From the NCBI GenBank assembly GCA_965205995.1, contig OZ242200.1, positions 19,233 through 83,232 on the forward strand: a DNA stretch of 64,000 nt, in the 5' to 3' direction. Below, piece by piece: positions 6,551-53,065 of the stretch. The notes beneath the pieces were generated by a model. The model was not told where the DNA came from. It did no database searches and was given only the letters and a program-made list of their open reading frames with translations. Source of the DNA: Alphaproteobacteria bacterium (lineage in GTDB: Bacteria > Pseudomonadota > Alphaproteobacteria > MPNO01). Numbering within the stretch: the first letter of the stretch is position 1; each line of letters opens with the position of its first letter. The position numbers and the translations under genes were made by a program.

Positions 6551-6551
6551 C

Positions 6552-7406: not shown

Positions 7407-7411
7407 GAACG

Positions 7412-9845: not shown

Positions 9846-9879
9846 GCGGACCCTTCGTTACGCGCCGGGGAACAAGCCC

Positions 9880-12713: not shown

Positions 12714-12821
12714 GCCCTTCGATACGCCCCGGATCAAGTCCGGGGCTACCCAGGGTGAGGGTGGGGCGGCCAAAAAAATCCCCCTCATCCCGAGTAGGCC
12801 CGCAGGGCCGTATCGAGGGAC
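12714..12821. repeat. palindromic intergenic repeat element, copy C (full length)
   Basis: GCCCTTCGATACGCCCCGGATCAAGTCCGGGGCTACCCAGGGTGAGGG-loop-CCCTCATCCCGAGTAGGCCCGCAGGGCCGTATCGAGGGAC between convergent OMP and DMT genes. Confidence 0.8.
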
Positions 12822-12831
12822 GCCGCTTGCC

Positions 12832-14555: not shown

Positions 14556-14586
14556 GCGGTCGAACAGATCCCGCAACGCAAGGGCC

Positions 14587-15531: not shown

Positions 15532-15540
15532 GCGGGCGGC

Positions 15541-17591: not shown

Positions 17592-17692
17592 GCCCTTCGA
17601 TACGCCCCGGATCAAGTCCGGGGCTACTCAGGGCGAGGGAATTTCTTTGGCCTCATCCCGAGTAGGTCTCGAAGGGACCGTATCGAGGAACC
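17592..17692. repeat. palindromic intergenic repeat element, copy E (full length)
   Basis: GCCCTTCGATACGCCCCGGATCAAGTCCGGGGCTACTCAGGGCGAGGG-loop-CCTCATCCCGAGTAGGTCTCGAAGGGACCGTATCGAGGAAC between convergent Sel1 and hydrolase genes. Confidence 0.8.
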
Positions 17693-17698
17693 CGCCGG

Positions 17699-28491: not shown

Positions 28492-28523
28492 CGGCGCCCT
28501 CTTCGATGCGTGGCTTCCGCCCC

Positions 28524-28567
28524 CCGTCGTGGTCGGCGGAGGCCGGCCATCCACGAGTTTTTTCTGC
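28524..28567 (+). terminator. putative Rho-independent terminator after dctM
   Basis: TCGTGG...GGCCGGCC...CCACGA stem followed by TTTTTTCT. Confidence 0.35.
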
Positions 28568-28582
28568 GGCGAGGGACGGCAA

Positions 28583-28625
28583 GGGAGGAAAAGAGAAAAC
28601 GTGGGTGGTCGGGCCAAGCCCGACC
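28583..28625 (-). terminator. Rho-independent terminator after AOR gene (minus strand)
   Basis: On minus strand GGTCGGGC-TTG-GCCCGACC perfect 8-bp stem followed by ACCCACGTTTTCTCTTTTCC. Confidence 0.55.
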
Positions 28626-28675
28626 ATGACGGAGTGAGGAGAGACGCTGCGGCCCCGTCGCCCGGTTGACGCGGC

Positions 28676-30397: not shown

Positions 30398-30488
30398 TCC
30401 GTCGGTATCCCGGGTGATATGCGATTGGCGCGATTGGCCGCCATATTGCGGGATTTAGGCGGGCCGTTTCCAGTTCTTTCGCCGTCGC

Positions 30489-32357: not shown

Positions 32358-32746
<389 letters not shown>

Positions 32747-39650: not shown

Positions 39651-40178
39651 ATGCTTCAATCGCAAGCGTGCTCACCTGGTGGATCTTCGGCGCCGTCGAG
39701 GCACGCCGAGGCATCGGCGCTGCTGGCGCGGATCGATGCGCTCAACCTCCGCTACGGCCATGCGATCGACGACGGCGAGTATGAGCGCCGGCCCGGCTTC
39801 TTCGTCGAGGACGTGCTCTACAAGATCACCACGCGGTGGAACCACGACCGCGCCATGCCGGCCGGGCTGATGCTGTGCCAGGGCCGGGCGATGATGCAGG
39901 ACCGGGTATCCGCGCTGAGGAGTGCGAACATCTACGAACCCCATTTCTACCGCCATCCGATCGACCCGCCCTCCGGCATCGGCATGTCGGACGGCGCGAT
40001 CGCGGCAACGGCGAGTTTCGCGGTCTGGCGCATCATGCAGTCCGGCGCGCCCGAGATCTTCTGCACCGGCAAATATGTCGAGCGGATCGTGGAGGCCGAC
40101 GGCGCCCTGAAATTCAGCCAGAGGATCGTCGTCTGCGACGGCGAGCGCATCGACACGATGATCGTCATCCCGCTTTAG
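39651..40178 (+). CDS. NTF2-like/SnoaL-like protein resembling ring-hydroxylating dioxygenase beta subunit (orphan)
   Basis: 175 aa; HAIDDGEYERRPGFFVEDVLYKI and C-terminal GKYVERIVEADGALKFSQRIVVCD pattern typical of beta-subunit fold; start uncertain. Confidence 0.45.
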   Translation: MLQSQACSPGGSSAPSRHAEASALLARIDALNLRYGHAIDDGEYERRPGFFVEDVLYKITTRWNHDRAMPAGLMLCQGRAMMQDRVSALRSANIYEPHFYRHPIDPPSGIGMSDGAIAATASFAVWRIMQSGAPEIFCTGKYVERIVEADGALKFSQRIVVCDGERIDTMIVIPL

Positions 40179-40593
40179 CCCGGCAGGCTGACCGGCCAGT
40201 AAGGCGCGACCTCGACCCATTCGTCATCCGACCCGGCGGGCCAGGGCGGAATCGTCACCGCGAACGCCGAGAGCGGCCGATCCCCGGTCGTGCGGAACTG
40301 GAACGAGGTTCCGAGCGGGATCGTCAGGCAGGTATCGGGTTTTAGAGCGACCACCTCTTCCCGGTCGCCGTCGCGGTGCCACATCTCGCCCCGCCAGGAC
40401 AGGATGTACCAGATCTCCTCCACCGTCCGATGACACCCCGCCCGCGAGACCGCGCCCGGGGCGAGCCGGAAATGCGCCGCGCTTCCGCCGCCGAGCGCCG
40501 GCAGCACCCGCACCTCCGATCCGTCGGGCGCGAGGGTGTCCGGTTCGGCGGGGAGGCGCCTGGCGGCGAAGCCCGGATTTTCCGGACCGGCCA
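40175..40593 (-). CDS. cupin domain protein (start uncertain, likely TTG just after GST stop)
   Basis: C-terminal ~140 aa of ORF 40175..40906 carries cupin core (SEVRVLPALGGGSAAHFRLAPGAVSRAGCHRTVEEIWYILSWRGEMW...TIPLGTSFQF); N-terminal part of ORF overlaps GST in another frame and is rejected. Confidence 0.45.
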
Positions 40594-40598
40594 ACCGC

Positions 40599-41291
40599 TC
40601 AGCGCTTCCTGTACTGCGCGGCGCCGAACATGTTGGACCAGTTTTCCTCGTTCCATTCCCACTCATCGGCGGTGTCGGTGAGCCGCTCCATGTCCCTGGC
40701 GACGGCGGGCCGGGCCGAGATGTCGTCGAACCAGCGCAGCACGTTGGGGTGGTCCTCCAGCCGCTGGCCCTGGCGTCCGTGCAGCCGGCACCAGGGAAAG
40801 ATCGCCATGTCGGCGATCGAATAGTCGCCGGCGACGTAGGGGACCTCGCCGAGCCGGCGGTCGAGGACCCCGTAAAGCCGCCGCGCCTCGTTGGTGTAGC
40901 GGTCATAGGCGTAGTCGATCTTTTCCGGCGCGTAGGCGCGGAAATGATGGGCCTGGCCGAGCATCGGGCCGAAGCTCGCCATCTGCCACATCAGCCACTG
41001 CATCGCCTCCAGCCGGGCGCGCGGCTCCGCCGGCATGAACTGCCCGGTCTTGTCGGCGAGGTAGAGCAGGATCGCGCCCGATTCGAAGACCGCGATCGGC
41101 GCGCCGTCCGGCCCGTCGTCGTCTGCCAGAGCGGGGATCTTGTTGTTCGGGCTTATGGCGAGGAATTCGGGGTCGAACTGGTCGCCCTTTTCCAGATCCA
41201 CCCAGTGCTCGTTATAGGCAAGCCCGGTCTCTTCCAGCATGATGTGGATCTTCTGGCCGTTCGGCGTTGCCGAGGTGTAGAGATCGATCAC
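40599..41291 (-). CDS. glutathione S-transferase (Nu/YfcG-like class)
   Basis: GTG start; IDLYTSATPNGQKIHIMLEETGLAYNEHWVDLEKGDQFDPEFLAISPNNKIPAL thioredoxin-like N-domain plus alpha-helical C-domain. Confidence 0.8.
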   Translation of the reverse strand: MIDLYTSATPNGQKIHIMLEETGLAYNEHWVDLEKGDQFDPEFLAISPNNKIPALADDDGPDGAPIAVFESGAILLYLADKTGQFMPAEPRARLEAMQWLMWQMASFGPMLGQAHHFRAYAPEKIDYAYDRYTNEARRLYGVLDRRLGEVPYVAGDYSIADMAIFPWCRLHGRQGQRLEDHPNVLRWFDDISARPAVARDMERLTDTADEWEWNEENWSNMFGAAQYRKR

Positions 41292-41376
41292 ATTCCGCTC
41301 CCGGCGTTGTTCAGGGACGGCGCAGAAAACCACAGTTCATCGGCGCTGAGAACAGGCGCGGGGAGCGTAAGGCGGT

Positions 41377-41910
41377 TTGAGCGCGTGGATCTTCGGCTAC
41401 GGCTCGCTGATTTGGCGGCCGGACTTCCCCTATCTGGAACGAAGGACGGCGGCGATCGACGGCTGGTCCCGCCGGTTCTGGCAGGGTTCGACCGATCACC
41501 GGGGGGTGCCGGGCGATCCCGGGCGGGTGGTCACCCTGGTGCCCGAGGGCGGCGCCAGATGCTGGGGCAGGGCCTATCGCATCGCGCCGGAGACCGGGGA
41601 CGAGATCCTGGGCCGGCTGGCCCATCGGGAGAAGGGCGGCTACGACCGCATCGTTCTCGATCTCCGCTTCGCCGAGCCCGGAGAGGCGTCGGTGCCCGGT
41701 TTCGTCTATTTCGCCAACCGGCGCAACCCGAACTGGCTCGGCCCGGCGCCGCTGCCCGACATCGCCCGCCAGGTGCGCCGCAGCCACGGGCCGAGCGGCG
41801 CCAACACCGACTATGTGCTGCAACTCGCCCGGGCGCTGCGCGGCATGGGGGTGGAGGACGCGCATGTGTTCGCGCTCGCCGACCTCGTCAAAGGCAACGG
41901 GGCACCCTAG
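41377..41910 (+). CDS. gamma-glutamylcyclotransferase (ChaC family)
   Basis: WIFGYGSLIWRP N-terminal motif, catalytic Glu region (LAHREKGGYDRIVL). Confidence 0.7.
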   Translation: MSAWIFGYGSLIWRPDFPYLERRTAAIDGWSRRFWQGSTDHRGVPGDPGRVVTLVPEGGARCWGRAYRIAPETGDEILGRLAHREKGGYDRIVLDLRFAEPGEASVPGFVYFANRRNPNWLGPAPLPDIARQVRRSHGPSGANTDYVLQLARALRGMGVEDAHVFALADLVKGNGAP

Positions 41911-41941
41911 ATTATGGGCAGCACAGAGAAGGAGGATGGCG

Positions 41942-42415
41942 ATGGCGAAAGCAACATTCGGTGCCGGCTGCTTCTGGGGCGTCGAGGAGGCCTATCGTCA
42001 GGTCGAGGGCATCACCGCCACCGCGGTCGGCTATGCCGGCGGGCAAGTGGACGACCCGACCTACGAGATGGTGTGCTCGGGCCGGACCGGCCACGCCGAG
42101 GTGGTCCAGGTCGAGTACGACCCCGGCAAGGTGAGCTACGAAGCGCTGCTGAAACTGTTCTGGCAGGTGCACGACCCGACCCAGGTGAACCGCCAGGGTC
42201 CCGATATGGGCACCCAGTACCGGACCGTCATCTTCGCCGATGACGACCACCAGGCCGAGGCCGCGCGAAGGTCGCTCGACGACGAACAGGCGAGCGGACG
42301 CCACCGCCGCGATATCGCGACGCAGATCGAGCCCGCGCCGAACTTCTGGATGGCCGAGGACTACCACCAGCAATATTTCTCCAAGCGCGGCCGCCGCAGG
42401 TTGGGTCTGTTCTAG
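41942..42415 (+). CDS. msrA: peptide-methionine (S)-S-oxide reductase
   Basis: ATFGAGCFWGVEE catalytic motif, EVVQVEYDP, HDPTQVNRQGPDMGTQYRT; GAAGGAGG RBS. Confidence 0.9.
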   Translation: MAKATFGAGCFWGVEEAYRQVEGITATAVGYAGGQVDDPTYEMVCSGRTGHAEVVQVEYDPGKVSYEALLKLFWQVHDPTQVNRQGPDMGTQYRTVIFADDDHQAEAARRSLDDEQASGRHRRDIATQIEPAPNFWMAEDYHQQYFSKRGRRRLGLF

Positions 42416-42499
42416 GAAGCCGGTCTTCCCGGGTGCCGCCCCGGGACGACGTACCCGACCCGTTCGAGTAAAATCCCGGTGCAATCGGGGAGGGCGCGC

Positions 42500-43687
42500 A
42501 TGGCGACGATGGCGCAGGAAGTCGAAACCGGCGCGGCGCTGATCGAGCGTGCGCAGGAATTGGTTCCGACGCTCGCCGCGCGGGCCGCCGAGACCGCCGC
42601 GCTCAGGCGCATGCCGGACCAGACCTTTCGCGATCTGCGCGACCTCGACCTCCTGAAGGCGGCGCGCGCCGAGCGCTTCGGCGGCTACGCGCTCGGCCTC
42701 GACGAGGTGCTCGAAATCGTCGTTCGGCTCGGGCGCGGCTGCGGCTCCACCGCCTGGGTCTACGGCATCTATTGCGACCACGCGATCACCGTCGGCATGT
42801 TCGAGCCCGAGGCCCAGGACGATGTCTGGGGCAACGACCCGGAAGCGGTCATCTCGTCCGGGCTGGCGCCTTCCGGCAAGGTCGAACGCCTCTCCGACGG
42901 CTTTCGCCTCAACGGGCGCTGGCAGTTCTCCAGCGGCTGCGACCACGCGGGCTGGGTTTTCGTGCAAAGCATGATCCCGCCCGAAGTGGACGGCGAGGGG
43001 CCGACGCCGGCCTATCTCCTGCTGCCGCGCAGCGACTGGGAAATCGACGACACCTGGTTCGTCTCCGGACTCACCGGCACCGGCAGCAAGGATATCGTGA
43101 TCGAGGACGCGTTCGTGCCGCCGCACCGGGTGCAGCCGATCGCTCCGCTGAATCTGGGCGAGGGGCCGGGCGCGCGGGTCAACCCGGCGCCGATCTACCG
43201 TCTGCCGCGGATCTCCACGGTGCCGTTCTCGCTGGTCGCGCCGGCGCTCGGCGTGGTCGATGCGATGATCGATGCCTTCGTCGAGCGGACGAGTGCGCGG
43301 GCGACGCGCGGGGTGCGCCACGCGGAGCTGACGACGGTCCAGCTCCGCCTCGCCGAGGCCGCCGCCGAGCGGGACTGCGCGAGGCTCCTGCTGGCCCGCG
43401 CGACCGGGGAGACGATGGCGGCGATGCGGAGCGCGGGGAAGCTGTCGCTCGACCAGCGCGCGCGCAACCGCCGCGACATGGCCTATATCGCGACCCTGCT
43501 CACCCGCGCCGCCGACCGGATCTACACCGTGACCGGGGCGAGCGGGCTGTTCGACGGCAACGACCTCAACCGGATGTTCCACGACATCCGCGCGGTCGCC
43601 GCGCACCACATCACGAGCTGGGACATCGCCGGGCCGACCTTTGGACAGGTCGCGCTCGGCGTCGAGCCCACCAGCCCCCTCGTCTAG
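42500..43687 (+). CDS. acyl-CoA dehydrogenase-fold flavin-dependent monooxygenase (two-component, DszC/HsaA/SfnB-like group)
   Basis: 395 aa; ACAD N/middle/C domains without the catalytic Glu context of true ACADs; MPDQTFRDLRDLDLLKAARAERFGG resembles group-D flavin monooxygenases; GGGAGG RBS. Confidence 0.7.
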   Translation: MATMAQEVETGAALIERAQELVPTLAARAAETAALRRMPDQTFRDLRDLDLLKAARAERFGGYALGLDEVLEIVVRLGRGCGSTAWVYGIYCDHAITVGMFEPEAQDDVWGNDPEAVISSGLAPSGKVERLSDGFRLNGRWQFSSGCDHAGWVFVQSMIPPEVDGEGPTPAYLLLPRSDWEIDDTWFVSGLTGTGSKDIVIEDAFVPPHRVQPIAPLNLGEGPGARVNPAPIYRLPRISTVPFSLVAPALGVVDAMIDAFVERTSARATRGVRHAELTTVQLRLAEAAAERDCARLLLARATGETMAAMRSAGKLSLDQRARNRRDMAYIATLLTRAADRIYTVTGASGLFDGNDLNRMFHDIRAVAAHHITSWDIAGPTFGQVALGVEPTSPLV

Positions 43688-43768
43688 CCGGGATACTCCC
43701 GGAGCAGCGCAGCCTCGATGGGAACGCCGAGGCTTTCGTGGATGCCGTTTCCTCGGCCATGACGGTTC

Positions 43769-45184
43769 TCAGCCCAGATAGTCTTCGAGCCTTACCTTGC
43801 CCCAGTTGAAGGGAAAGGCTTCGCGGAAATCGTCGCCCCCGCGATGGGGTTTGGCGGTGGCGTCGATGCCGATCTTGCCGACCAGGCGGAAGGGCTCGTG
43901 GCCCGGGATCGGCGCGGCCGAGGGATCGTAGGGCGAGCCCCGCGTCCCGGGCACCACGACGATGTCCCGCGCCGGATCGACCCGGGTCGCCATCGCGCGG
44001 TAGACCGCGCCCGGGCTGTCGATATCGGTATCGGGGCCGATCGCGACCACCATCTTGGTGTTGAGCCAGGGCGCCCCCATGGCCTGCATCAGCGCGTCGT
44101 TGACGAAGCCTTCGCGCGGATAGCTCACCTGGATTATGCAGGATACCGCGGCGCCCCAGGTCGGGAAGCGGACATCGTGCACGGTGAGCCCGATCTCGGT
44201 GATCCGGTTGTAGAGCACCGCCTCGTGGCACAGCCTCGGCAGCGGCTGATGATCGGTCTCCGGCACGGTCTGGTGGTTGCGGTAGATCGGCCTGGAGGCG
44301 CGCATGGTGATCGCGGTCAGGTCGATGCGCGGGATCTTCTGCTCCTTTGGGAGGAAGTACATGGTGGGGGCGTTCACCCCGCCGGCTTCGTGCGTCCGGG
44401 AGAGGTCGACCACCCCCTCGACCACGATCTCCGCATGGGCCGGGACGCGGAGGTCGATGGTCTCGCAGGGCACCATCTCGACGTCCCGGTCCATGATCGT
44501 GCCGACCATCTCCAGCTCGCCCCAGAGGTCCATATGCATGCCGGAGAAGTTGGCCATGATCTCGTAGGCCGGATGGACCCCGAAGACGAGCGCGATCGGC
44601 ATCTCGGTGAGGCCCCGCTCGCGGTACTTGTCCATGACGATGTGGGTGTGCGGGGTGGCGAAGCTGATCCAGCCGTGGCGCGGGCCGACCGGCGTGGTGC
44701 CGGCATGCGAGGAGTTGTAGAAGCCGGTCTCCGGGTCCCTGACGATGTTCATCGCCGAGATGTAGCGCTGGCCCTCCTCGGCCGAGTGGACCGGCACCGG
44801 CAGCTTCAGCCAGTCGACCTCCTCGCCGGTCCGGACGATTTCCTTGACCGGGCCGGTGGGCACGTCGACGAAGCCGCGCGGCGGCTGGCGCAGGCGCCGC
44901 GCCAGCGTCGGCAGGTAATCGGCCTGCGCCACGCCGAGCGCGCGGCATTGCGACCAGCGATGCTTGACCAGGATGTCGCAGAGCCGGAAGTCGGGGTATT
45001 CGGCGATGTTCTCGAACAGGATCGGCCCCTCGGACTGCGCCGACAGCGCGCCGATGTCGTCGATCGAGACCGGTTTCTCGATCACCGTCAGGATATCGGC
45101 GTTGGTCTCCAGATAACCGCGCAGATCCCGGTCCAAAGCCCGGTTGGTCAACGCGCGCGGCTCTTCGGGCGCGGCACCGGCCAT
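43769..45184 (-). CDS. UbiD family (prFMN-dependent) reversible decarboxylase
   Basis: 471 aa; N-terminal DLRGYLE...DILTVIEKPVSIDD, conserved UbiD core (NIVRDPETG, EMVGTIMDRD, PKEQKIPRIDL-like), strong GAGGAGG RBS. Confidence 0.85.
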   Translation of the reverse strand: MAGAAPEEPRALTNRALDRDLRGYLETNADILTVIEKPVSIDDIGALSAQSEGPILFENIAEYPDFRLCDILVKHRWSQCRALGVAQADYLPTLARRLRQPPRGFVDVPTGPVKEIVRTGEEVDWLKLPVPVHSAEEGQRYISAMNIVRDPETGFYNSSHAGTTPVGPRHGWISFATPHTHIVMDKYRERGLTEMPIALVFGVHPAYEIMANFSGMHMDLWGELEMVGTIMDRDVEMVPCETIDLRVPAHAEIVVEGVVDLSRTHEAGGVNAPTMYFLPKEQKIPRIDLTAITMRASRPIYRNHQTVPETDHQPLPRLCHEAVLYNRITEIGLTVHDVRFPTWGAAVSCIIQVSYPREGFVNDALMQAMGAPWLNTKMVVAIGPDTDIDSPGAVYRAMATRVDPARDIVVVPGTRGSPYDPSAAPIPGHEPFRLVGKIGIDATAKPHRGGDDFREAFPFNWGKVRLEDYLG

Positions 45185-45229
45185 GATCGCCTCCTCATGA
45201 GGGATTAGGCGTCAGGATATGCCGCGGCG

Positions 45230-45319
45230 CCCGCTCGACCAACAGGGCCGCTACTCAGGATGAGGGGTGAAAGAACCGCCTCATCCCGAGTAGGTCCCCA
45301 AGGGACCGTATCGAGGGAC
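45230..45319. repeat. palindromic repeat element copy F (degenerate left arm) in divergent UbiD/LLM intergenic region
   Basis: GGCCGCTACTCAGGATGAGGGG-loop-CCTCATCCCGAGTAGGTCCCCAAGGGACCGTATCGAGGGAC, followed by CCCCACCCGGCATTGGACC module. Confidence 0.7.
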
Positions 45320-45417
45320 GCACCCCGCCGGCCCCACCCGGCATTGGACCTTTGCCCGGCCGGGCGGGCTGGGGTAGCGTTTCCGGACAGCAGATTCATT
45401 TTCGGGGTCGAGGCGCG

Positions 45418-46755
45418 ATGGCCGATGGACGGAACGGCGGGAACCATCCGGGCATGAAGCTCGGCATGTTCTACTGGCCCTGCGGCCACCACATGGCCGC
45501 GTGGCGGCACCCCGACGGCGTCGCCGATTCGGGCGCCAATATCGATCACATCGTCGGGCTTGCGAAGCTCGCCGAGCGCGGCCTGTTCGATTTGTTCTTT
45601 ATGGCCGATTCGGTCTCGTTCTGGCGCGGCGACCTCAAATCGATGACCCGGGATTCCCACGGCGCCTGGATCGAGCCGTTCACCGTGATGTGCTCGCTCG
45701 CCCAGCACACGCGCAATATCGGCCTGGTCTGCACGTCGACCACGACCTACGACCAGCCTTATTTGATCGCCAGGCGGTTCGCGTCGCTAGACGTCGCCAG
45801 CGGCGGCCGGGCGGGGTGGAACCTGATCACCTCGGCCAACAAGCTGGAGGCCGACAGCTTCGGGGTCGACGAGCACATGGAGAAGACCGAGCGCTACCGC
45901 CGCGGTCGCGAGTTCGCCCATGTGGTGCGCGGGCTGTGGAACTCCTGGGGCGAGGACGTGTTCGTCCGCGACAAGGAAAGCGGCCTCTATTTCGACGAGA
46001 GCAAGCTCACCGTGATGGAGCACAAGGGGGCGCATTTCCGGGTGCGCGGGCCGATCAACGTACCGCCCTCGCCGCAAGGGGAGCCGGTGATGGTGCAGGC
46101 CGGCGCGTCCGATGACGGGCGCCAGCTCGCGGCGGAAACCGCCGAGGTGATCTTCGGCGCGCAGCAGACCCTCGAGGGGGCGCAGGAGTTCTATGCCGAC
46201 GTGAAGGGCCGCATGACCGCCATCGGCCGCGACCCAGATTCGCTCAAAGTCATGCCCGGGCTCGCCGTCTGCGTCGGCCGCACCCAGCAAGAGGCCGAGG
46301 ACAAGTACGAGGTCTTGCAGGACCTGATCGACCCGCTGGCCGGGATGCAGCTGCTGTCCAGGCGGGTCGATTTCGACCTCACCGGCTATGACGTCGACGG
46401 CCCGCTGCCGGAACTGCCGCCCAACAAGGTCGTATCCACAAGGGCGCAGCTCTTCGCCGAGATCGGGCGGCGGGAGAACCTCACCATACGCGACCTCTAC
46501 CGCCGCGTCGCCGGCGCGCGGGGGCATTACGAGATCATCGGCACGCCCGACAGCATCGCCGACATGATGGAGCAATGGGTGCGCGAGCGCGGCTGCGACG
46601 GCTTCAACATCATGCCGCCGGTGTTCCCGTCGAGCCTTGAGGATTTCATCGAGCTGGTGATCCCCGAACTCCAGCGGCGCGGGCTCTACCGCACCGAATA
46701 CGAGGGCGCGACGCTCAGGGAAAATCTCGGCATCGAACGCCCGCCCTGGCCCTAG
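45418..46755 (+). CDS. LLM class flavin-dependent monooxygenase (NtaA/SnaA/DszA family)
   Basis: ~445 aa from MADGRNGGNHPGMKLGMFYWPCGHH; luciferase-like TIM barrel with family insertion; alternative start 45454. Confidence 0.8.
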   Translation: MADGRNGGNHPGMKLGMFYWPCGHHMAAWRHPDGVADSGANIDHIVGLAKLAERGLFDLFFMADSVSFWRGDLKSMTRDSHGAWIEPFTVMCSLAQHTRNIGLVCTSTTTYDQPYLIARRFASLDVASGGRAGWNLITSANKLEADSFGVDEHMEKTERYRRGREFAHVVRGLWNSWGEDVFVRDKESGLYFDESKLTVMEHKGAHFRVRGPINVPPSPQGEPVMVQAGASDDGRQLAAETAEVIFGAQQTLEGAQEFYADVKGRMTAIGRDPDSLKVMPGLAVCVGRTQQEAEDKYEVLQDLIDPLAGMQLLSRRVDFDLTGYDVDGPLPELPPNKVVSTRAQLFAEIGRRENLTIRDLYRRVAGARGHYEIIGTPDSIADMMEQWVRERGCDGFNIMPPVFPSSLEDFIELVIPELQRRGLYRTEYEGATLRENLGIERPPWP

Positions 46756-47798
46756 AGCGTATCCAGCTTGAGCAGGTCGCGGGCATTCCCCTCGTAGATG
46801 CGCGCGCGCTCCGCGGGATCGATGTCGAGCGCGTCGACCGCGTCTATGGTGCCGCGGATGAACAGCGCCCCGCCTTCGGGATCGAACGGCGCGTCGGTGG
46901 CGAACAGGCTGCGGCCGGCGCCGAAGAACGCAAAGCCGCATTCGGTTGCAGGCCGCGACCCGTTCAACGCCGTGTCGCCGTAGAGCATCCGGTAGTACTC
47001 GATCGGCTGTTTCGCGAGCCCGGCGCGGGCGGCGAGCGGGTTGTTGCCGACCCCGCCCTCGAAGAGCTGCTCGAAGCCGATGGCGATCTTTTCCGCGAAG
47101 AAGGGGATCATCCCGCCCATATGGTGGGTGACGATCTTGAGGTCCGGCAGGGCGTCGAACAGGCCGGAGAAAATCAGCCGCGCCATGCAGGCGCTGGTCT
47201 CGTAGGGCCAGCCGAAGGTGAACCAGATCTCGTGCTCCGACAGCTCCTCGGTCACATAGTCGGGGTGGTTGGGCCCACGGATCGGATGCACCCAGACCGG
47301 AAGGTCGTAGCCCGCGAGGCACTCGAACAGGGGGCGGAACGGGGCCGCGCTGATCGGCCTGCCCAGCACGTTGGTGAAGATTTGCACGCCGCGCGCGCCG
47401 AGCTCGTCGATCGCGATTTGCACGCCGCGCGCGCCGAGCTCGTCGATCGCGCGCTCCGCTTCGGCCACCGCGCCGTCCGGATCGTTCAGCGCGACCGAGG
47501 CGGTGAAGGCGGGGAAGCGGTCGGGGTAGCGGGTGCAGAGCTCGGCCATCCCGTCATTGGCGATCCGCGCGAGCGCCGCGCTTTCGGCCGGCGTGCCGAG
47601 GGCTTCCAGCGGCGGGTTGGCGAGCGACAGCACCTGCCGGTAGTCCGCGAACCCGTCCATCATGCGGACCCTCGCCTCCACATCGGTCAGCGTCGGCAGC
47701 AGCGGGTATCGTGCGAGCATCCGCTTGTCGGGGACGATCTCCTTCAGCCGCGCGAAATATTCGGGCGGCAGGATGTGGTTGAAGATGTCGAGTTTCAT
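46752..47798 (-). CDS. amidohydrolase-2 family metal-dependent decarboxylase/hydrolase (ACMSD/LigW/PicC-like family)
   Basis: 348 aa; MKLDIFNHILPPEY start (H-x-H context), His/Asp metal ligands (HHMGG, DAPFD); contains in-frame duplicated 12 aa AIDELGARGVQI x2. Confidence 0.8.
   Translation of the reverse strand: MKLDIFNHILPPEYFARLKEIVPDKRMLARYPLLPTLTDVEARVRMMDGFADYRQVLSLANPPLEALGTPAESAALARIANDGMAELCTRYPDRFPAFTASVALNDPDGAVAEAERAIDELGARGVQIAIDELGARGVQIFTNVLGRPISAAPFRPLFECLAGYDLPVWVHPIRGPNHPDYVTEELSEHEIWFTFGWPYETSACMARLIFSGLFDALPDLKIVTHHMGGMIPFFAEKIAIGFEQLFEGGVGNNPLAARAGLAKQPIEYYRMLYGDTALNGSRPATECGFAFFGAGRSLFATDAPFDPEGGALFIRGTIDAVDALDIDPAERARIYEGNARDLLKLDTL
47379..47450. repeat. perfect 36-bp tandem duplication inside amidohydrolase gene (in-frame, 12 aa)
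   Basis: GATTTGCACGCCGCGCGCGCCGAGCTCGTCGATCGC x2 read directly. Confidence 0.9.
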
Positions 47799-47891
47799 CG
47801 CTTGTCGTCCGCCCGGCGCATGCTTCCCCCGTCAGCGTCCGCATTGTAGCGTTGCGCCGCAACCGACGCTGAAGAACCGGGAGGCAACCCA

Positions 47892-48470
47892 ATGGCCGGC
47901 CACACGGTCCCCGCATTCGCGCGCTTCGTCGACGACCTCCGCGCTCATTTCGGGAAGCGCCTGGCGGAAGAAGAGCACTGGCAGGGCGTGCGGGGCCTGC
48001 TCGCGACCTTGGTCGCCGACGAGGCGATGCGCCGGGCATCGCGCGGCTGGACCGCCAGGAAGGGCCGCGAATACATCCTCCACCACGACGCCGATCACGG
48101 GTTTTTCGTCGGCGCCCTGGTGCGCGAGCCGGGCCACCGCGCGTTCATCCACGACCACGCCCATACCTGGACCGTCTACGGCGTGCTCGACGGGGCCGAG
48201 ATCACCCATGTCTACGCGCGCACCGATGACGGCGGCACGCCCGGCAAGGCGGTGCTGGAGCTGATCGACAGGCACGACGCGCCGACCGGCCATGTCGACA
48301 TCGTCGGACCCTGGGTGCCCCATTCCGAATGGGGCGCGTCCGAACGCTCGGTGGCGATCACGGTGCGCAGCGACCGCCCCGGCGGCTACAGCCAGAACCG
48401 CTACTTCCCCGAGACCGGCACCACCGACAACACCCACCGCGGGCTGGTGCTGGTGCCGCTGGCGTTGTGA
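47892..48470 (+). CDS. cysteine dioxygenase type I-like cupin (thiol dioxygenase family)
   Basis: 192 aa; His triad HHDADHGFF...HDHAHTWTVYGVL...H pattern consistent with CDO/3-mercaptopropionate dioxygenase cupins. Confidence 0.5.
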   Translation: MAGHTVPAFARFVDDLRAHFGKRLAEEEHWQGVRGLLATLVADEAMRRASRGWTARKGREYILHHDADHGFFVGALVREPGHRAFIHDHAHTWTVYGVLDGAEITHVYARTDDGGTPGKAVLELIDRHDAPTGHVDIVGPWVPHSEWGASERSVAITVRSDRPGGYSQNRYFPETGTTDNTHRGLVLVPLAL

Positions 48471-48498
48471 CCGGCACAAGGGCTTTTGCGCCGCCGGT

Positions 48499-49347
48499 TC
48501 AAAGACCGCGCAGGAACCCGTCGAGAGCAGCGACACATTCCGGCTCCGCCAGGGTCGGGGCATGGCCCGTCCGTGGCACGGTCACCAGGCGGGCTTCGGG
48601 ATATTCCCGGCCCATCCGCAGGAAGCATTCCCCGGGAAACGCATCCGACACCTCGCCCCGAAAGGCAAGCAGGGGGATCGGCCGCAGCCCCCGGAAATAA
48701 GGCCAGAAGTCGGGAGGAGCGCCTTGAGCCTCGACGATCGGCTTGACGATATTCACGTCCCAGTCGAACTGGAGCAGCCCGTCCTCGCCTTCGCAATATG
48801 TATTGCGGACCATCGCCTCGAACATCGCCTCGGTCTGAAACACGGCATCGGGCGTCAGCGTCCCGATCGCTTCCGCCGCTCTCTCCCAATCGGGCTGCGG
48901 GCGTTCGACGCCGATATAGGCAAGGGCGGCGTCCAGACTGTCCCAGTCGACCTCGGGGCCCGCGTCGTTGAGGACCAGCCCCGCCAGGCCGAACGGCATG
49001 ACCGCCGGGAGCGCCATCGCCAGCATGCCGCCGAACGAGGTGCCGACCGCGACGACCCGGCTGACATCGGCGAAAGCAAGCAAGCTGGCGATGTCGTCGA
49101 GATAGATCCGGGGCCGGTAGTTGCGCCAGTCCGGGTCGTGGTCCGAGCGACCCCGGCCGCGCAAATCCGGGCACAGCACCCGCCGTTCTTCGGCGAGAAT
49201 TCGCGCGATGGGGTCGAAGTCGCGGGCGTTCCGGAAGAGCCCGCCGAGGCAGAGTACCGGCGTTGCGGCCGAGCCCGGATCGCCGTAGTCCCGGAAATAG
49301 AGGCTGAGACCGTCCTTGGCGGTAAATCGGCGCTCGCGATACGACAT
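48499..49347 (-). CDS. alpha/beta hydrolase
   Basis: Trimmed to MSYRERRFTAKDGLSLYFRDYG; GTSFGG nucleophile elbow; proline iminopeptidase/epoxide hydrolase-like fold. Confidence 0.75.
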   Translation of the reverse strand: MSYRERRFTAKDGLSLYFRDYGDPGSAATPVLCLGGLFRNARDFDPIARILAEERRVLCPDLRGRGRSDHDPDWRNYRPRIYLDDIASLLAFADVSRVVAVGTSFGGMLAMALPAVMPFGLAGLVLNDAGPEVDWDSLDAALAYIGVERPQPDWERAAEAIGTLTPDAVFQTEAMFEAMVRNTYCEGEDGLLQFDWDVNIVKPIVEAQGAPPDFWPYFRGLRPIPLLAFRGEVSDAFPGECFLRMGREYPEARLVTVPRTGHAPTLAEPECVAALDGFLRGL

Positions 49348-49431
49348 CGCCGCTCCGGTCGGGCTTCGACAGACGCGGGGAAGCCCCCGGTCACATGGCA
49401 GCAACCCGGTCTTGAAGTCTGACGCCCCGAT

Positions 49432-51726
49432 TCACGCGGCGCCGTTCTCTGCCTCCCCGATCGCCTTGAGCACCTTCGGCGGCGACATCGGCTGTTCGCG
49501 GAGCCGGATTCCGATGGCGTCGTTGATGGCGTTGGAGATCGCCGCGATCGGTGGGATGATCGGCACCTCGCCGATGCCGCGCACCCCGTAAGGGTGGTTG
49601 GGGTTGGGCACCTCGACGATTTCCGTCCCGATGAAGGGAACGTCCGAGGCCACCGGCACCCGGTAGTCGAGGAAGCCCGGGTTCTGCAGCACCCCGTCCT
49701 CGCCGTAGATGTATTCCTCGTTGAGCGCCCAGCCGATCCCCTGCACCGCGCCGCCCTGGAACTGGCCCTCGACATAGGCCGGGTGGATCGCCTTGCCGGT
49801 ATCCTGGATCACCGTGTAGCGGAGGATCTTGACCAGCCCGGTCCTCCGGTCGACCTCGACATCGACGATATGGGTGCCGAAACCCGGCCCGGCGCCGTCT
49901 GCGGTGATCTCCGCGTGACCCGCGATGGGGCCGCCGGTCATGCCCGACCGCTGCGCGATCTCGCCGATGGAAAGCGGCTCGAACTCGCCGACATTGGAAC
50001 TCGCCGGACGCGCGTGGCCGTCCTCCCAGACCACCCCGTCGACCGGCACGCCCCAGGTCTGCGCGGCGCGCTCGCGCATCACGTCGATCGCCTTGCGCGC
50101 GGCGACGGTCACCGCCATGCCGCTCGCGAAGGTGCCGCGGCTGCCGGCGGTCACGAAATTGAAGCCGAGCGCCTGGGTGTCGCCGATCTGCGGGCGCACC
50201 CTGTCGAAATCGATGCCGAGCTCCTCGGCCACGATCATCGCCATCGCGGCGCGCGACCCGCCGGCGACGTCTATGGTGCCGAGGACCACGGTCACGCTGC
50301 CGTCCTCGTTGACGTTGAGCGTGGTGGTGGTTTCCTTGCCGATGTTGAACCAGAAACCGGTCGCGATGCCGCGGCCCTGGTCCGGGCCGAGCGGTTCCTT
50401 GAGATGCGGATGCTCCTGCGCCTTCCTGAGCGTGGCCTCGTAGCCGATCGGCCCGAAGGTCGGCCCGTAATAGGTCTGGGTCCCTTCCTTGGCGGCGTTC
50501 AGCAGGCGGAACTCGATCGGGTCGATGCCAAGCTCGATCGACATCTCGTCGAGAATGCTTTCGACGCCGAAGATCGAAATCGGCGCGCCGGGCGCGCGGT
50601 AGGCGGCGACCTTGGGCCGGTTCACGGTGATGTCGTTGCCGATCACCTTGACGTTCTCGACGTCGTAGCGGGTGAACGTGCACATCGCCGCCATCGGCAC
50701 CGAGGAGCCCGGGAAGGCGCCGGCCTGGAAGTCGAGCTGGGCCTCGGCGGCGACGATGCGGCCGTCCTTGCTGCAGCCGATCTTGATCCGCGTATGCGCG
50801 CCCGAGGTCGGGCCGGTCGAGCGGAACACGTCCTCCCGGCTCATCGTCATCTTGACCGGCCGGTTGGATTTCTTCGAAAGGACGATGGCGGGCGGTTCGA
50901 GATAGACGTTGTTCTTGCCGCCGAACCCGCCGCCGAGTTCGGTCGGGATCACGCGGATCTTCGAGATGTCCATCTGCAGCAGCTTGGCGCATTGCGCGCG
51001 GATCACGAAATGGCCCTGGGTCGCGGTATAGACCTCGACCTGGCCGTCCTCGGAATAGCTGGCGATCGAGGCCTGGGGCTCGATATAGCCCTGATGCACC
51101 GGCTTGGTGTTGAAATCGCGCTCGATGACGAGGTCGGCCTCGGTGAAGCCCTTTTCCACATCGCCCTTGGCGAAATTGAACACCTTGGCGAGGTTGGACG
51201 CCTTCTCCGGCGTCGGCTTGACGCCTTCGGTGATCTGCTCCTCGTGCAGTAGCGGCGCGTCCTCGGCCATTGCCGCCACGGGGTCGATCACATGCGGCAG
51301 CACCTCGTAGTCGACCTCGATCAGCTTGACCGCCCGCCTCGCGATCGCCTCCGAGGTGGCGGCGACGGCGGCGACCGGATGGCCGTCATAGAGCACCTTC
51401 TCGCGCGCCATCATGTTGCGGGTGACATCGCGGAAATTGACGATGAGCTCGCCCGCGGCGGCGTATTCCACCGGCATTTCCGGGAAATCGTCGCGGGTGA
51501 CGACGGCCTTCACGCCGGGCAGCGCCTCGGCCTTTTCGGTGCGGATGGCGAGGACCCGCGCATGGGCGTGCGGGCTGCGCACCACGCGCCCGTAGAGCTG
51601 GCCCGGCAGGTTGATGTCCGCGCCGTAGCGCGCGCGGCCGGTGACCTTGTCGACCCCGTCGGGGCGGATCGGCCGTGTGCCGACGACCTTGAGATCCTTC
51701 TCCTCGTATTTGAGCGTCGTCGACAT
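49432..51726 (-). CDS. xanthine dehydrogenase family molybdopterin-binding large subunit (CoxL-like, not form-I CODH)
   Basis: 764 aa from MSTTLKYEEKDLKVVGTRPIRPDGVDKVTGRARYG (GGGAGG RBS); active-site loop AAYRAPGAP rather than AYRCSFR. Confidence 0.85.
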   Translation of the reverse strand: MSTTLKYEEKDLKVVGTRPIRPDGVDKVTGRARYGADINLPGQLYGRVVRSPHAHARVLAIRTEKAEALPGVKAVVTRDDFPEMPVEYAAAGELIVNFRDVTRNMMAREKVLYDGHPVAAVAATSEAIARRAVKLIEVDYEVLPHVIDPVAAMAEDAPLLHEEQITEGVKPTPEKASNLAKVFNFAKGDVEKGFTEADLVIERDFNTKPVHQGYIEPQASIASYSEDGQVEVYTATQGHFVIRAQCAKLLQMDISKIRVIPTELGGGFGGKNNVYLEPPAIVLSKKSNRPVKMTMSREDVFRSTGPTSGAHTRIKIGCSKDGRIVAAEAQLDFQAGAFPGSSVPMAAMCTFTRYDVENVKVIGNDITVNRPKVAAYRAPGAPISIFGVESILDEMSIELGIDPIEFRLLNAAKEGTQTYYGPTFGPIGYEATLRKAQEHPHLKEPLGPDQGRGIATGFWFNIGKETTTTLNVNEDGSVTVVLGTIDVAGGSRAAMAMIVAEELGIDFDRVRPQIGDTQALGFNFVTAGSRGTFASGMAVTVAARKAIDVMRERAAQTWGVPVDGVVWEDGHARPASSNVGEFEPLSIGEIAQRSGMTGGPIAGHAEITADGAGPGFGTHIVDVEVDRRTGLVKILRYTVIQDTGKAIHPAYVEGQFQGGAVQGIGWALNEEYIYGEDGVLQNPGFLDYRVPVASDVPFIGTEIVEVPNPNHPYGVRGIGEVPIIPPIAAISNAINDAIGIRLREQPMSPPKVLKAIGEAENGAA

Positions 51727-51728
51727 GG

Positions 51729-52205
51729 TCAAACCTCCCTCATCTCGCGGGCCGCGTCGGCCACCGCCTCGACGATCTTGTGATAGCCGGTGCAGCGGCA
51801 CAGATTGCCGGCGAGCCAGTAACGGATTTCGGTCTCGGTCGGGTCGGGGTTGTGCTCCAGCAGCGCGCGCGAGGCGACCAGCAGGCCCGGGGTGCAGATG
51901 CCGCATTGCAGGGCGGCGTGTTCGAGGAACTTGCGTTGCAACGGATGCAGCTCCTCGCCTTCCGCCATGCCCTCGATGGTCTCGACCCGCTTGCCCTCGA
52001 TTTCGACGCCGAGCATCAGGCAGGAGCACACGACCCGCCCGTCCACGGTGACCGAGCAGGCGCCGCAATCGCCGGTGCCGCAACCCTCCTTGGTGCCGGT
52101 CATCACGAGTTCGTCGCGCAGCACCGAAAGCAGCGTCTGGTCGCTCTCGCAGAGGAAATCGACCTCGTCGCCATTGATCGTCGTCGTTACGTGATAGCGC
52201 GCCAT
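51729..52205 (-). CDS. (2Fe-2S)-binding small subunit of Mo-hydroxylase (CoxS-like)
   Basis: 158 aa; CGTGDCGAC plant-type and CGICTPG...CRCTGY second cluster motifs. Confidence 0.9.
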   Translation of the reverse strand: MARYHVTTTINGDEVDFLCESDQTLLSVLRDELVMTGTKEGCGTGDCGACSVTVDGRVVCSCLMLGVEIEGKRVETIEGMAEGEELHPLQRKFLEHAALQCGICTPGLLVASRALLEHNPDPTETEIRYWLAGNLCRCTGYHKIVEAVADAAREMREV

Positions 52206-53065
52206 CAGCTTTGCTCCGCCCGTTCGAGCGCGATCCGGGCCGCCCGTTCGGCGAGCACGCCGGCGACCTCGATCCTGAATTCCTTGGTGCCCCGCTTGTC
52301 GTCGATCGGCCGGCAGGCCGCCGAGGCGGCCTTCGACAATTCGGCGAGCGCGGCATCGTCGACCCTTGAGCCGATCAGCGCGGCGGCGGCCTCGTCGACA
52401 AGCAGCGGCCGTTCCGCGACCGCGCCCAGCGAGACTCGCGCCGCGCTGCAGACCCCGGCCTCGTCGATCGTCAGGTTGACGCCGACGCCGACGACCGCGA
52501 TGTCCATCTCGGTCCTCGGCGTAAACCGCAGATAGGCGTCGCCCGAACGCGGCGACCGTTGCGGCAGCTCGAAGGAGATCACGATCTCGCCCGCGCCCAG
52601 CGAGGTCTTGCCCGGGCCTATGGCGATGTCCTCGACCGGCACCGACCGGCGTCCGCCGGGGCCGATCACCGAGGCCAGGGCGCCGGCGGCGATCAGCGCC
52701 GGCACGCTGTCCGCGGCCGGCGAGGCGTTGCACAGATTTCCGCCGAGCGTCGCCCGGCCGCGCACCTGGATCGAGCCGATCAGCTTGGCGCCGTCGACGA
52801 TCCCCGGCCACACCGCGTTGAAGCCCTCATGCTCCATGATCTCCATCCCGGTGACCGCGGCCCCGAGGCGGTAGCGGCCGCCCTCTTCGGCGATTTCCCG
52901 CATCTCGGCGATGTTCTTGATGTCGACCAGGACTTCGGGCTCGACCATGTCGGCGCGCATCTGGATCAGGAGATCCGTGCCGCCCGCCAGCACCTTGGCC
53001 GCGCCGCCGGCATCCGCCAGCAGCCTGGTCGCCGCGTCCAACGACGCCGGCGCTTCATAGCGCAT
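52205..53065 (-). CDS. FAD-binding medium subunit of Mo-hydroxylase (CoxM-like)
   Basis: 286 aa from MRYEAPASLDAATRLL; VLAGGTDLL FAD-binding motif, CO dehydrogenase flavoprotein C-domain; ATGA overlap with coxS. Confidence 0.85.
   Translation of the reverse strand: MRYEAPASLDAATRLLADAGGAAKVLAGGTDLLIQMRADMVEPEVLVDIKNIAEMREIAEEGGRYRLGAAVTGMEIMEHEGFNAVWPGIVDGAKLIGSIQVRGRATLGGNLCNASPAADSVPALIAAGALASVIGPGGRRSVPVEDIAIGPGKTSLGAGEIVISFELPQRSPRSGDAYLRFTPRTEMDIAVVGVGVNLTIDEAGVCSAARVSLGAVAERPLLVDEAAAALIGSRVDDAALAELSKAASAACRPIDDKRGTKEFRIEVAGVLAERAARIALERAEQS

Follow-up and report, generated by a model that had tools for sequence, protein, structure and literature searches.

The catabolism of gamma-resorcylate is reportedly encoded by the graRDAFCBEK cluster of Rhizobium sp. 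MTP-10005, and the pic and nic clusters, for picolinate and nicotinate, combine a Mo-hydroxylase with an amidohydrolase-2 (AH2) decarboxylase of the PicC class and an alpha/beta hydrolase of the NicD/PicE class. In lumazine cluster I of Cupriavidus sp. LA-1, a Mo-hydroxylase of the xanthine oxidoreductase family, an Amidohydro_2 enzyme and a UbiD decarboxylase dependent on prenylated FMN (prFMN) act in sequence; there, a CobW-like GTPase always accompanies DHLI-beta, and the decarboxylase XCDC is described as unrelated to HmfF (PMC12391406). Here, we compare with these systems a block of 14 genes on alternating strands at positions 39651-53065 of a 64,000-nucleotide stretch of alphaproteobacterial contig OZ242200.1 (hereafter, the window). 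Genes were called on the basis of third-codon-position GC content (GC3), and families were assigned using Pfam and NCBIfam profiles and sequence searches of the PDB. The block encodes a glutathione S-transferase (GST), ChaC, MsrA, a flavin-dependent phenol hydroxylase with the acyl-CoA dehydrogenase (ACAD) fold, a UbiD decarboxylase, a luciferase-like monooxygenase (LLM), an AH2 enzyme, a 192-residue cupin with the cysteine dioxygenase (CDO) fold, an alpha/beta hydrolase and a Mo-hydroxylase with coxM-S-L gene order (coxMSL), in addition to two smaller proteins described below. We conclude, with a probability of roughly 0.55, that the region is a lineage-restricted mosaic, in which housekeeping thiol-redox genes lie beside two or three independently gained peripheral modules for hydroxy- or hetero-aromatic carboxylic acids, and that it does not encode one pathway.

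The principal evidence for a mosaic comes from the relatives of the window strain. The block is retained only in a narrow clade, at about 75-95% protein identity (L004-L012, L088, L089 and L129, where L numbers denote compared loci), and even there its composition varies. Four members (L009, L012, L088 and L089) keep everything from rarA, in the left flank, to the LLM, and have neither AH2, the 192-residue cupin nor coxMSL; in L009, genes for STAND/AAA NTPases adjoin the LLM. In L007, a 7.6-kb insert with genes for a large fn3/cadherin-repeat protein and a PhzF protein separates UbiD from the hydroxylase, and in L011 an IS110 transposase lies between the hydroxylase and msrA. The GST-Cupin_2 and chaC-msrA pairs, by comparison, are unmoved in every close-clade member that covers that part. 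Within a sister lineage (L161), the hydroxylase (69% identity) is followed after a 49-nt gap by the cupin (79%), then by an insertion sequence (IS), coxLSM (78-88%) and the same valine-catabolism genes that bound the window block; UbiD, the LLM and AH2 are absent from that locus; on this contig, the closest LLM (75%) is found at another site, immediately behind a tandem pair of UbiD paralogues with only 27-31% identity to the UbiD of the window. These gains and losses therefore resolve at least two separable modules, one consisting of the hydroxylase, the cupin and coxMSL and the other of UbiD, the LLM and AH2. The single coherent cluster implied by the original prediction, which was made from the sequence alone, thus gives way to a set of modules that come and go and whose synteny is lost outside the narrow clade.

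Anchoring the comparison on individual genes leads to the same picture. For UbiD, 80 loci from species-representative GTDB genomes were searched with all window proteins: nine of these (90-92% identity) have a complete or largely complete block, and in the other 71 (67-86% identity) none of the window's neighbours is present. A MarR-type regulator was found by open reading frame (ORF) clustering to follow UbiD in 52 of the 80 loci and, therefore, the method is able to recover genuine partners across such distances. Other genes often seen near the UbiD orthologues encode a Rieske VanA-like oxygenase, MFS or Liv-type transporters, an HpaB-type hydroxylase, an old yellow enzyme (OYE) reductase and cupins, and in about nine of the loci L013-L083, UbiX and a 207-residue protein of unknown function are encoded upstream. 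This HmfF-like orthogroup (67-86% identity) is widespread in Alphaproteobacteria and occurs in some Beta- and Gammaproteobacteria; no close UbiD homologue was found among PLSDB plasmids, and plasmid searches gave one weak match each for UbiD and the cupin. For the LLM, 73 loci were gathered by scanning metagenome contigs with an LLM alignment, and outside the window lineage no ORF family was common to more than 4 of the 73 loci around its orthologues (59-80% identity). Only one locus outside the window lineage joins coxMSL and the LLM: on a marine contig (L160, 974-4927), coxMSL orthologues (70-79%) are divergent from the LLM start, and a CMD/AhpD-like gene then follows.

The surroundings of the cupin are more informative. 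Ten contexts of cupin homologues outside the window lineage (33-79% identity) were compared with 1.27 Mb of UbiD-anchored loci (n = 71) from metagenome-assembled genomes (MAGs). An AH2 gene lies within 8 kb of the cupin homologue in 5 of the 10 contexts vs 4 of the 71 control loci (Fisher P = 0.001), corresponding to densities of 4.3 and 0.31 AH2 genes per 100 kb, respectively; moreover, the two genes are directly adjoining in L163 and L168, as in the window. The association of the cupin with Amidohydro_2 is the only statistically supported link, and it holds at the family level only, because the partner AH2 genes are 20-29% identical to that of the window. Mo-hydroxylase genes are not significantly enriched near the cupin homologues (3/10 vs 8/71; P = 0.13). 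Two further adjacencies were considered and set aside, namely LLM-UbiD, which occurs in four arrangements (the window, L164/165, L094 and L123/126) whose UbiDs are 25-31% identical and of different subfamilies (P = 0.56), and LLM-AH2 (L117 and L119-121; P = 0.14). Other recurrent neighbours of the cupin homologues belong to the Amdase (L084, L162 and L166) and ornithine-cyclodeaminase (L084 and L086) families, or encode TRAP transporters and Rieske oxygenases.

These comparisons bear directly on whether the genes from the hydroxylase to coxM could form one pathway for a single (N-hetero)aromatic carboxylic acid, resembling picolinate, nicotinate or lumazine, which we consider unlikely. In such a pathway, the Mo-hydroxylase and flavin oxygenases would hydroxylate, AH2 and UbiD would decarboxylate, the cupin would replace NicX/PicD and the hydrolase would deformylate. 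Although every enzyme class that this scheme needs is encoded inside 11 kb, each gene has its own orientation, the hydrolase is strain-specific and the block contains no regulator, transporter, amidase or isomerase. Precisely three of these classes, namely Mo-hydroxylase, Amidohydro_2 and UbiD, serve the lumazine pathway (PMC12391406), but its hallmarks (paired DHLI subunits, a CobW-like GTPase, UbiX and a deaminase) are absent. Cupin homologues do occur with AH2, sometimes with Mo-hydroxylases (L086, L163 and L168), and near members of the Amdase and isochorismatase families, which are those of maleate isomerase and maleamate amidase (L084, L162 and L166); the enrichment of Mo-hydroxylases, however, is not significant. 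Similarly, the divergent coxMSL and LLM genes of the marine contig are consistent with a common pathway, whereas synteny is lost beyond the narrow clade for any anchor tested, and relatives drop either AH2, the cupin and coxMSL, or have no UbiD, LLM and AH2, with the rest kept.

Conversely, the juxtaposition might be meaningless, such that unrelated orphan genes, with partners elsewhere or none, have accumulated in a recombination hotspot. The alternating strands would suit this explanation, as would the IS elements, repeat copies and STAND-NTPase genes found in or near the region in relatives, and neither UbiD nor the LLM has a conserved window neighbour; the non-significant LLM-UbiD and LLM-AH2 associations point the same way. 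We nonetheless regard it as quite improbable, since the cupin-AH2 association is significant, the hydroxylase and cupin form a closely spaced pair in the sister lineage, AH2 with a GraA-type hydroxylase is a known functional pairing, and the families of all seven non-housekeeping genes are typical of aromatic catabolism, a uniformity that genes sampled at random would be unlikely to show.

The 192-residue cupin matches no model in Pfam or NCBIfam, and its similarity by sequence to thiol dioxygenases in the PDB is weak (3e-6 alone, and 2e-12 with a 37-sequence profile). Its AlphaFold (AF2) model, which has a predicted local distance difference test (pLDDT) score of 94.5, matches 3-mercaptopropionate dioxygenase (MDO) and CDO structures (4TLF, 6XB9 and 4QMA) over the full length, including the N-terminal helices, with template modelling (TM) scores of 0.76-0.81 in Foldseek, and its three-histidine site (H87, H89 and H144) is invariant and aligned with the MDO ligands. 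A Ser-His-Tyr motif is one of two features common to structurally characterized thiol dioxygenases (PMC8050391, PMC10966181), although it is reported as enhancing rather than essential, and Arg168 of MDO binds the carboxylate of the substrate (PMC8050391). In contrast, the positions of the motif are occupied in the cupin by Ala155, Thr157 (Thr or Ile in the subfamily) and Arg159, as in nearly all full-length subfamily representatives examined, and the motif itself was seen in two weak-scoring relatives only. The position of MDO Arg168 is taken by an invariant Gln168 throughout the subfamily, an invariant Glu146 follows the third histidine, and the neighbours of the cupin are decarboxylases and hydroxylases, not sulfur genes. 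The 'thiol-dioxygenase-like' label of the original prediction is therefore right for the fold, but unproven for the chemistry. The subfamily is small: in a search of 1.84 billion cluster representatives, 81 matched at E <= 1e-30. A literature search for COG5553 found nothing. Tentatively, the cupin might represent a new functional class within the CDO fold: a non-thiol Fe(II) enzyme, with a three-histidine site accompanied by Glu146, Arg159 and Gln168, that could act as a dioxygenase on the products of AH2- and GraA-type enzymes, for example by cleaving the ring of a hydroxyquinol- or dihydroxypyridine-like compound. It would thereby supply the dioxygenase step that is otherwise missing from a (hetero)aromatic acid pathway not yet described, in which the neighbouring Mo-hydroxylase would also take part. 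In Ralstonia and Variovorax, the graA and reductase genes are followed by genes for hypothetical proteins, which proved not to be homologues of the cupin. At a separate locus (L170, 8001-9807), there are three tandem paralogues of the cupin (61-70% identity), with genes for an AH2 enzyme, an intradiol dioxygenase and an MFS protein 4-7 kb away.

The ACAD-fold enzyme had been taken for a DszC-like monooxygenase that forms a two-component pair with the LLM. However, it scores 301 bits against the NCBIfam model HsaA and 260 bits against HpaH-C2, vs 28 bits against DszC (cut-off 850) and 27 bits against SfnB, on which grounds a Dsz, Sfn or sulfur-starvation identity was rejected; the best structural matches in the PDB are 2RFQ (1e-64) and 2JBR (3e-62). 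Judged by these scores, its assignment is to the oxygenase component of a two-component flavin-dependent phenol hydroxylase of the HsaA/GraA/HpaH-C2 type. It is 37-39% identical to the products of graA-type genes of cultured organisms, which are followed by a flavin reductase gene, and on a plasmid of Variovorax sp. SRS16 a homologue lies with AH2, an intradiol dioxygenase and a truncated iron-containing alcohol dehydrogenase gene in a gamma-resorcylate-type cluster. The hydroxylase and LLM genes do not constitute a pair, because UbiD intervenes on the opposite strand.

The LLM had been identified as DszA/NtaA-like, and this is borne out at the level of the subfamily: its closest PDB matches, at 1e-103 to 1e-87, are 7E36_B (StmO), YtnJ, NtaA and DszA, with DszA (5TLC, 3e-87) ranking below the other three. 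The protein is, by its profile match, a clear member of the NtaA/DmoA/DszA subfamily TIGR03860, with no closer placement; 7E36, the best match, is a streptoseomycin biosynthetic enzyme and is uninformative on LLM function here. The LLM alone may, by analogy, have a sulfur role: homologues (56% identity) on Variovorax and Burkholderia replicons lie near genes for CysB, a sulfurtransferase, TauD, sulfonate ABC transporters and a sulfate transporter, a TauD gene overlaps the LLM orthologue in L136, and an arylsulfotransferase gene follows it in L096. Genes for TauD, an arylsulfotransferase and pyridoxal phosphate (PLP)-dependent Cys/Met enzymes are also found near cupin homologues (L084, L086 and L167), and the window cupin has the fold and three-histidine site of thiol dioxygenases. 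Even so, a general role in organosulfur or thiol metabolism, in which the LLM would cleave C-S bonds under sulfate limitation, the cupin would oxidize thiols to sulfinates, and glutathione and oxidized sulfur amino acids would be dealt with by GST, ChaC and MsrA, is very unlikely, given that the ACAD-fold enzyme is neither DszC- nor SfnB-like, that the cupin subfamily has lost both Ser-His-Tyr and Arg168, that the block encodes no sulfonate or taurine transporter, CysB/Cbl regulator, DszB or sulfite-handling protein, that UbiD, AH2 and Mo-hydroxylases play no part in known sulfur-scavenging systems, and that GST, ChaC and MsrA persist in relatives without the cupin.

The best solved relative of the window UbiD is HmfF (6H6X/6H6V; 8e-39 in the PDB search), although the similarity is remote. 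Arg304 and Arg331 of HmfF, which we take to be carboxylate-binding residues, align with His320 and Ala346, respectively. Additionally, His312 aligns with His296 of HmfF, a residue that is reported as key for furan-type substrates and is numbered H297 in the study concerned (PMC7976604). In a sister lineage (L164, 6786-11338; L165, 6787-11338), tandem UbiD paralogues of 503 and 481 residues, which share 44% identity and are phenylphosphate-carboxylase-beta/VdcC-like, immediately precede the LLM orthologue (75%); a Liv-type ABC transporter is encoded downstream. The window itself contains an aromatic-looking run on the + strand at 5012-10677, with genes for a Rieske VanA-like oxygenase, a Cupin_2 protein, an alpha/beta hydrolase, a thiamine pyrophosphate (TPP) enzyme and an aspartate-dehydrogenase-like protein; the Rieske gene (5012-6043) was considered as an orthologue of that flanking UbiD in other genomes and was rejected, at only 33-37% identity.

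The AH2 enzyme matches 3IJ6 (1e-34), LigW (2e-26) and gamma-resorcylate decarboxylase (2DVT and 3S4T; 1.5e-24) in the PDB, and its gene overlaps that of the LLM by 4 nt at the 3' end. Sagittula, Pacificitalea and Rhizobium etli have homologues (43-46%) in clusters for carboxylate catabolism; in that of R. etli, a Mo-hydroxylase lies beside AH2. The window gene carries a strain-specific, in-frame tandem duplication of 12 codons, in which a 36-nt unit (AIDELGARGVQI) occurs twice at 47373-47444. The gene of L001, which is otherwise 99% identical, does not have it, and nor do those of L004 and L007; the duplication is either a real polymorphism of this strain, located in the barrel, or a product of misassembly. 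The Mo-hydroxylase large subunit scores 305 bits against the NCBIfam model CO_dehy_Mo_lg (cut-off 991), its best models, 4-HBCR alpha and XdhA, are likewise under their cut-offs, and it matches 1RM6 at 3e-93 in the PDB. The coxMSL products fall far short of the cut-off of every equivalog model, CoxL included, and, to judge from these scores, they form a generic xanthine-oxidase-family hydroxylase that has the coxM-S-L gene order only, its large subunit not being a form-I CO dehydrogenase equivalog. The alpha/beta hydrolase, the start codon of which is uncertain (49299, 49347 or 49404), is present only in the window strain and near-identical contigs, and is absent from L004-L012, including relatives at 90% identity. 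Elsewhere in the window, a second large subunit of the xanthine-oxidase family (18550-20889, - strand) is 26% identical to coxL and has no adjoining small or medium subunit genes; it is flanked on the - strand by an isochorismatase-family gene (20970-21680) and an alpha/beta hydrolase gene (17699-18580). A CoxG gene lies at 62367-62819.

If the mosaic reading is right, the region would be a rearrangement-prone spot in a Defluviicoccus-like alphaproteobacterial chromosome, between rpoA-rplQ/degP/rarA and the valine operon, that has brought together three parts. The first would be the housekeeping thiol-redox genes, GST-Cupin_2 and chaC-msrA; the second, a module of the GraA/HsaA-type phenol hydroxylase, the three-histidine cupin and the Mo-hydroxylase, plus the strain-specific hydrolase; and the third, a module of the HmfF-like UbiD, the NtaA/DszA-type LLM and AH2, placed in this lineage between the hydroxylase and the cupin. 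From the chemistry of the families, decarboxylation would be non-oxidative, effected on ortho-hydroxy acids by AH2 with Mn or Zn, and by UbiD with prFMN supplied by a UbiX encoded elsewhere. The ring would be hydroxylated by the two reduced-flavin oxygenases, served by a reductase encoded elsewhere, or by the Mo-hydroxylase with water; the cupin could then act on the product as an Fe(II) dioxygenase, possibly cleaving the ring, and the hydrolase could take the cleavage product. What was observed directly is which families the genes belong to, how they are ordered, how modules are gained and lost, and that the cupin is associated with AH2; the substrates, the sequence of the reactions and possible co-regulation are suggestions that we infer from this.

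A number of points weigh against this interpretation. The comparisons between genomes were made on MAG and metagenome assemblies, with tblastn and Pfam family calls; few cupin contexts were sampled, and their control loci have aromatic-catabolic surroundings. The partner AH2 and Mo-hydroxylase genes are just 20-34% identical to those of the window, such that the associations are family-level only. The hydroxylase, UbiD and LLM are kept together in every close-clade member, which would also fit a functional unit, and the two arrangements could have arisen either by an insertion in the window lineage or by a deletion in L161. Finally, no regulator, transporter or recognized ring-cleavage or lower-pathway gene was found in the block and no UbiX was detected in the 64-kb window, of which not every ORF was scanned; a search of the window with two GraD-type reductases (tblastn), and with Pfam on the scanned ORFs, revealed no flavin reductase either, in agreement with the original prediction. 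Because the block lacks all of these, a catabolic role for any module is unproven.

The features of the block are listed in Table 1.

Table 1. Genes and repeat copy at 39651-53065 of the window, with the evidence for each assignment
Feature	Position	Strand	Evidence
SnoaL_4/NTF2-like protein, 175 residues	39651-40178	+	Pfam SnoaL_4 1e-5
Cupin_2 protein, 142 residues	40175-40603	-	Pfam Cupin_2 on the same gene in L001-L003
GST, YfcG/YghU (GSH-dependent disulfide-bond oxidoreductase) type	40599-41291	-	Pfam GST_N, GST_C
ChaC-like gamma-glutamylcyclotransferase	41377-41910	+	Pfam ChaC 6e-56
MsrA, peptide methionine sulfoxide reductase	41942-42415	+	Pfam PMSR 6.5e-64
ACAD-fold oxygenase component, predicted phenol hydroxylase	42500-43687	+	NCBIfam HsaA 301 bits
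UbiD-family (prFMN) decarboxylase, HmfF-like branch	43769-45184	-	Pfam UbiD, UbiD_C
Repeat copy, REP/MITE-like, UbiD/LLM divergent intergenic region	45220-45330	.	Three copies in the window
LLM, luciferase-like FMNH2-dependent monooxygenase, NtaA/DmoA/DszA subfamily	45418-46755	+	TIGR03860 549 bits
Amidohydro_2 (AH2), 348 residues, ACMSD/LigW/gamma-resorcylate decarboxylase superfamily	46752-47798	-	Pfam 2e-32
Cupin, 192 residues, CDO fold	47892-48470	+	AF2 model and Foldseek
Alpha/beta hydrolase	48499-49404	-	Pfam Abhydrolase_6, Abhydrolase_1; PDB 3BWX 5e-62
coxL, molybdopterin-binding large subunit, xanthine-oxidase family	49432-51726	-	Pfam hammerhead, MoCoBD_1, MoCoBD_2
coxS-type [2Fe-2S] small subunit	51729-52205	-	Pfam Fer2, Fer2_2; NCBIfam
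coxM-type FAD-binding medium subunit	52205-53065	-	Pfam FAD_binding_5, CO_deh_flav_C; NCBIfam XdhB-like under cut-off

GST, ChaC, MsrA, the LLM, UbiD, the amidohydrolase, the alpha/beta hydrolase and coxMSL all lie where they had been predicted, and the strand map agrees with the several small transcription units proposed; the genes for the SnoaL_4/NTF2-like and Cupin_2 proteins had not been listed. The former protein resembles the small subunit of anthranilate dioxygenase (NCBIfam AndAd 127 bits, under the cut-off of 230), and the latter shows 70-82% identity across relatives. The Cupin_2 gene overlaps the GST stop codon by 4 nt and the two are, therefore, likely to form an operon; the GST scores 224 bits against NCBIfam PRK13972, under the cut-off of 332. 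The msrA gene begins 31 nt past chaC. Rather than belonging to a pathway, GST, ChaC and MsrA look like housekeeping neighbours, unmoved in relatives without the cupin. The description of the block as accessory-looking is supported by the variable gene content among close relatives, though its base composition is the same as that of the flanks. The repeat that had been noted in the divergent region between UbiD and the LLM is one of three intergenic window copies (~45220-45330, 17592-17696 and 12714-12825) of an element of ~100 nt resembling repetitive extragenic palindromes and miniature inverted-repeat transposable elements (REP/MITE), with internal inverted repeats (CTCAGG.TGAGGG ... CCTCATCCCGAG); the palindromic core of this copy, at 45254-45290, is unique as an exact string. 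A scan for promoters and terminators was uninformative, with one promoter-like site vs 1.5 expected.

Both flanks are conserved, with rpoA-rplQ, degP, rarA, crcB, a pseudouridine synthase and a HAD hydrolase on the left, and, on the right, a valine-catabolism operon (ACAD, ECH_2 3-hydroxyisobutyryl-CoA hydrolase and 3-hydroxyisobutyrate dehydrogenase) followed by hydantoinase A/B. Proteins identical to those of the window are found on megabase contigs of metagenome assemblies, and the nearest named genomes are MAGs of Defluviicoccus sp. Towards the ribosomal genes, 49 nt are repeated exactly and in direct orientation, with a period of 61 nt, at the 5' end of rpsM (32391-32500). The S13 ORF (32432-32746) is without about the first 22 profile positions, which suggests that this essential gene contains either a duplication that shifts the frame or an error of assembly; together, this repeat and the 36-nt duplication in AH2 suggest either local assembly errors or real microheterogeneity. 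Directly upstream of rpsM-rpsK-rpoA-rplQ, and an unusual neighbour for a ribosomal gene cluster, is a set of genes (26535-32069) for TRAP DctQ and DctM proteins, a tungsten-type aldehyde:ferredoxin oxidoreductase (28676-30397, - strand) and an AMP-binding ligase (30489-32069, - strand). The window also contains tandem paralogous genes for outer-membrane beta-barrel proteins (10992-11714 and 11898-12704), three tandem EamA transporter genes (12832-15834), a gene for a Sel1-repeat protein with six 108-nt tandem repeats (16741-17388) and, at its left end (1646-4593), genes for a squalene-hopene cyclase and a squalene/phytoene synthase, of hopanoid biosynthesis.

If the region is indeed modular, it offers a caution, in that genes of catabolic appearance packed closely together in one MAG do not necessarily make up a pathway, and comparing close (75-95% protein identity) with more distant (60-86%) relatives tells modules from mere neighbours. 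Two leads emerge, namely a small, uncharacterized cupin subfamily that has the CDO fold and an altered active site and is found in the company of Amidohydro_2 decarboxylases, and an HmfF-like UbiD orthogroup paired with MarR that is widespread in Alphaproteobacteria. Either could extend the enzyme toolbox for the (de)carboxylation or oxygenation of aromatic acids, and bears on the degradation range of Defluviicoccus-type wastewater organisms.

How far, then, does the block resemble the described systems? With dszABC/dszD it shares an LLM of the DszA subfamily and a nearby ACAD-fold flavin oxygenase. Dsz desulfurization was rejected, as there is no DszC, no DszB and no co-directional operon in the block, and no flavin reductase was detected in the window by tblastn or among the scanned ORFs; of the two activities suggested originally, the enzyme families fit peripheral catabolism of (hetero)aromatic acids, but not the Dsz-like one. 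The Hmf furan pathway combines the HmfF/HmfG decarboxylase with the furoyl-CoA dehydrogenase HmfABC; the block resembles it in its UbiD, whose best solved relative is HmfF and which has the conserved histidine, and in a three-subunit Mo-hydroxylase, which here is encoded 4 kb away from UbiD. This pathway was rejected on account of the remote UbiD similarity, the absence of UbiX (HmfG) from the window and that of furoyl-CoA synthetase, HmfE and HmfH from the block; moreover, UbiD orthologues elsewhere lie near MarR, Rieske, HpaB and ABC-transport genes, not hmf genes. Lumazine cluster I comprises the same three enzyme families, whereas the window UbiD, unlike XCDC, is closest to HmfF; membership of this cluster type was rejected because there is a single AH2 enzyme and no paired alpha/beta DHLI, CobW-like GTPase, UbiX or pterin/cytosine-type deaminase.

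The pic and nic clusters share with the block, at the family level, a three-subunit Mo-hydroxylase, an AH2 enzyme and an alpha/beta hydrolase, the last being strain-specific here. Their NicX/PicD (2,5-dihydroxypyridine) dioxygenase, maleamate amidase and maleate isomerase have no counterpart in the block, which is not conserved as a unit; the sole isochorismatase-family gene seen in the window (20970-21680) is 27 kb away from it. In the case of the gra/tsd clusters, the resemblance, again at the family level only, lies in the combination of an AH2 non-oxidative decarboxylase with an ACAD-fold two-component phenol hydroxylase. The adjacent flavin reductase, intradiol (hydroxyquinol 1,2-) dioxygenase and maleylacetate reductase of those clusters were not found in the block and scanned ORFs of the window; the block has no MarR regulator, its AH2 and hydroxylase genes are 3 kb apart on opposite strands with two genes between, and its AH2 enzyme is just 27% identical to that of Variovorax SRS16. 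Thus, the gra, pic/nic and lumazine pathways each miss at least one defining feature here, as do Hmf and Dsz, and the original reluctance to assign the block to a described pathway was well founded. Overall, by analogy, the AH2 enzyme and GraA-type hydroxylase would follow the logic of gamma-resorcylate catabolism, whereas the Mo-hydroxylase, AH2 enzyme and hydrolase would follow that of the picolinate, nicotinate and lumazine pathways.

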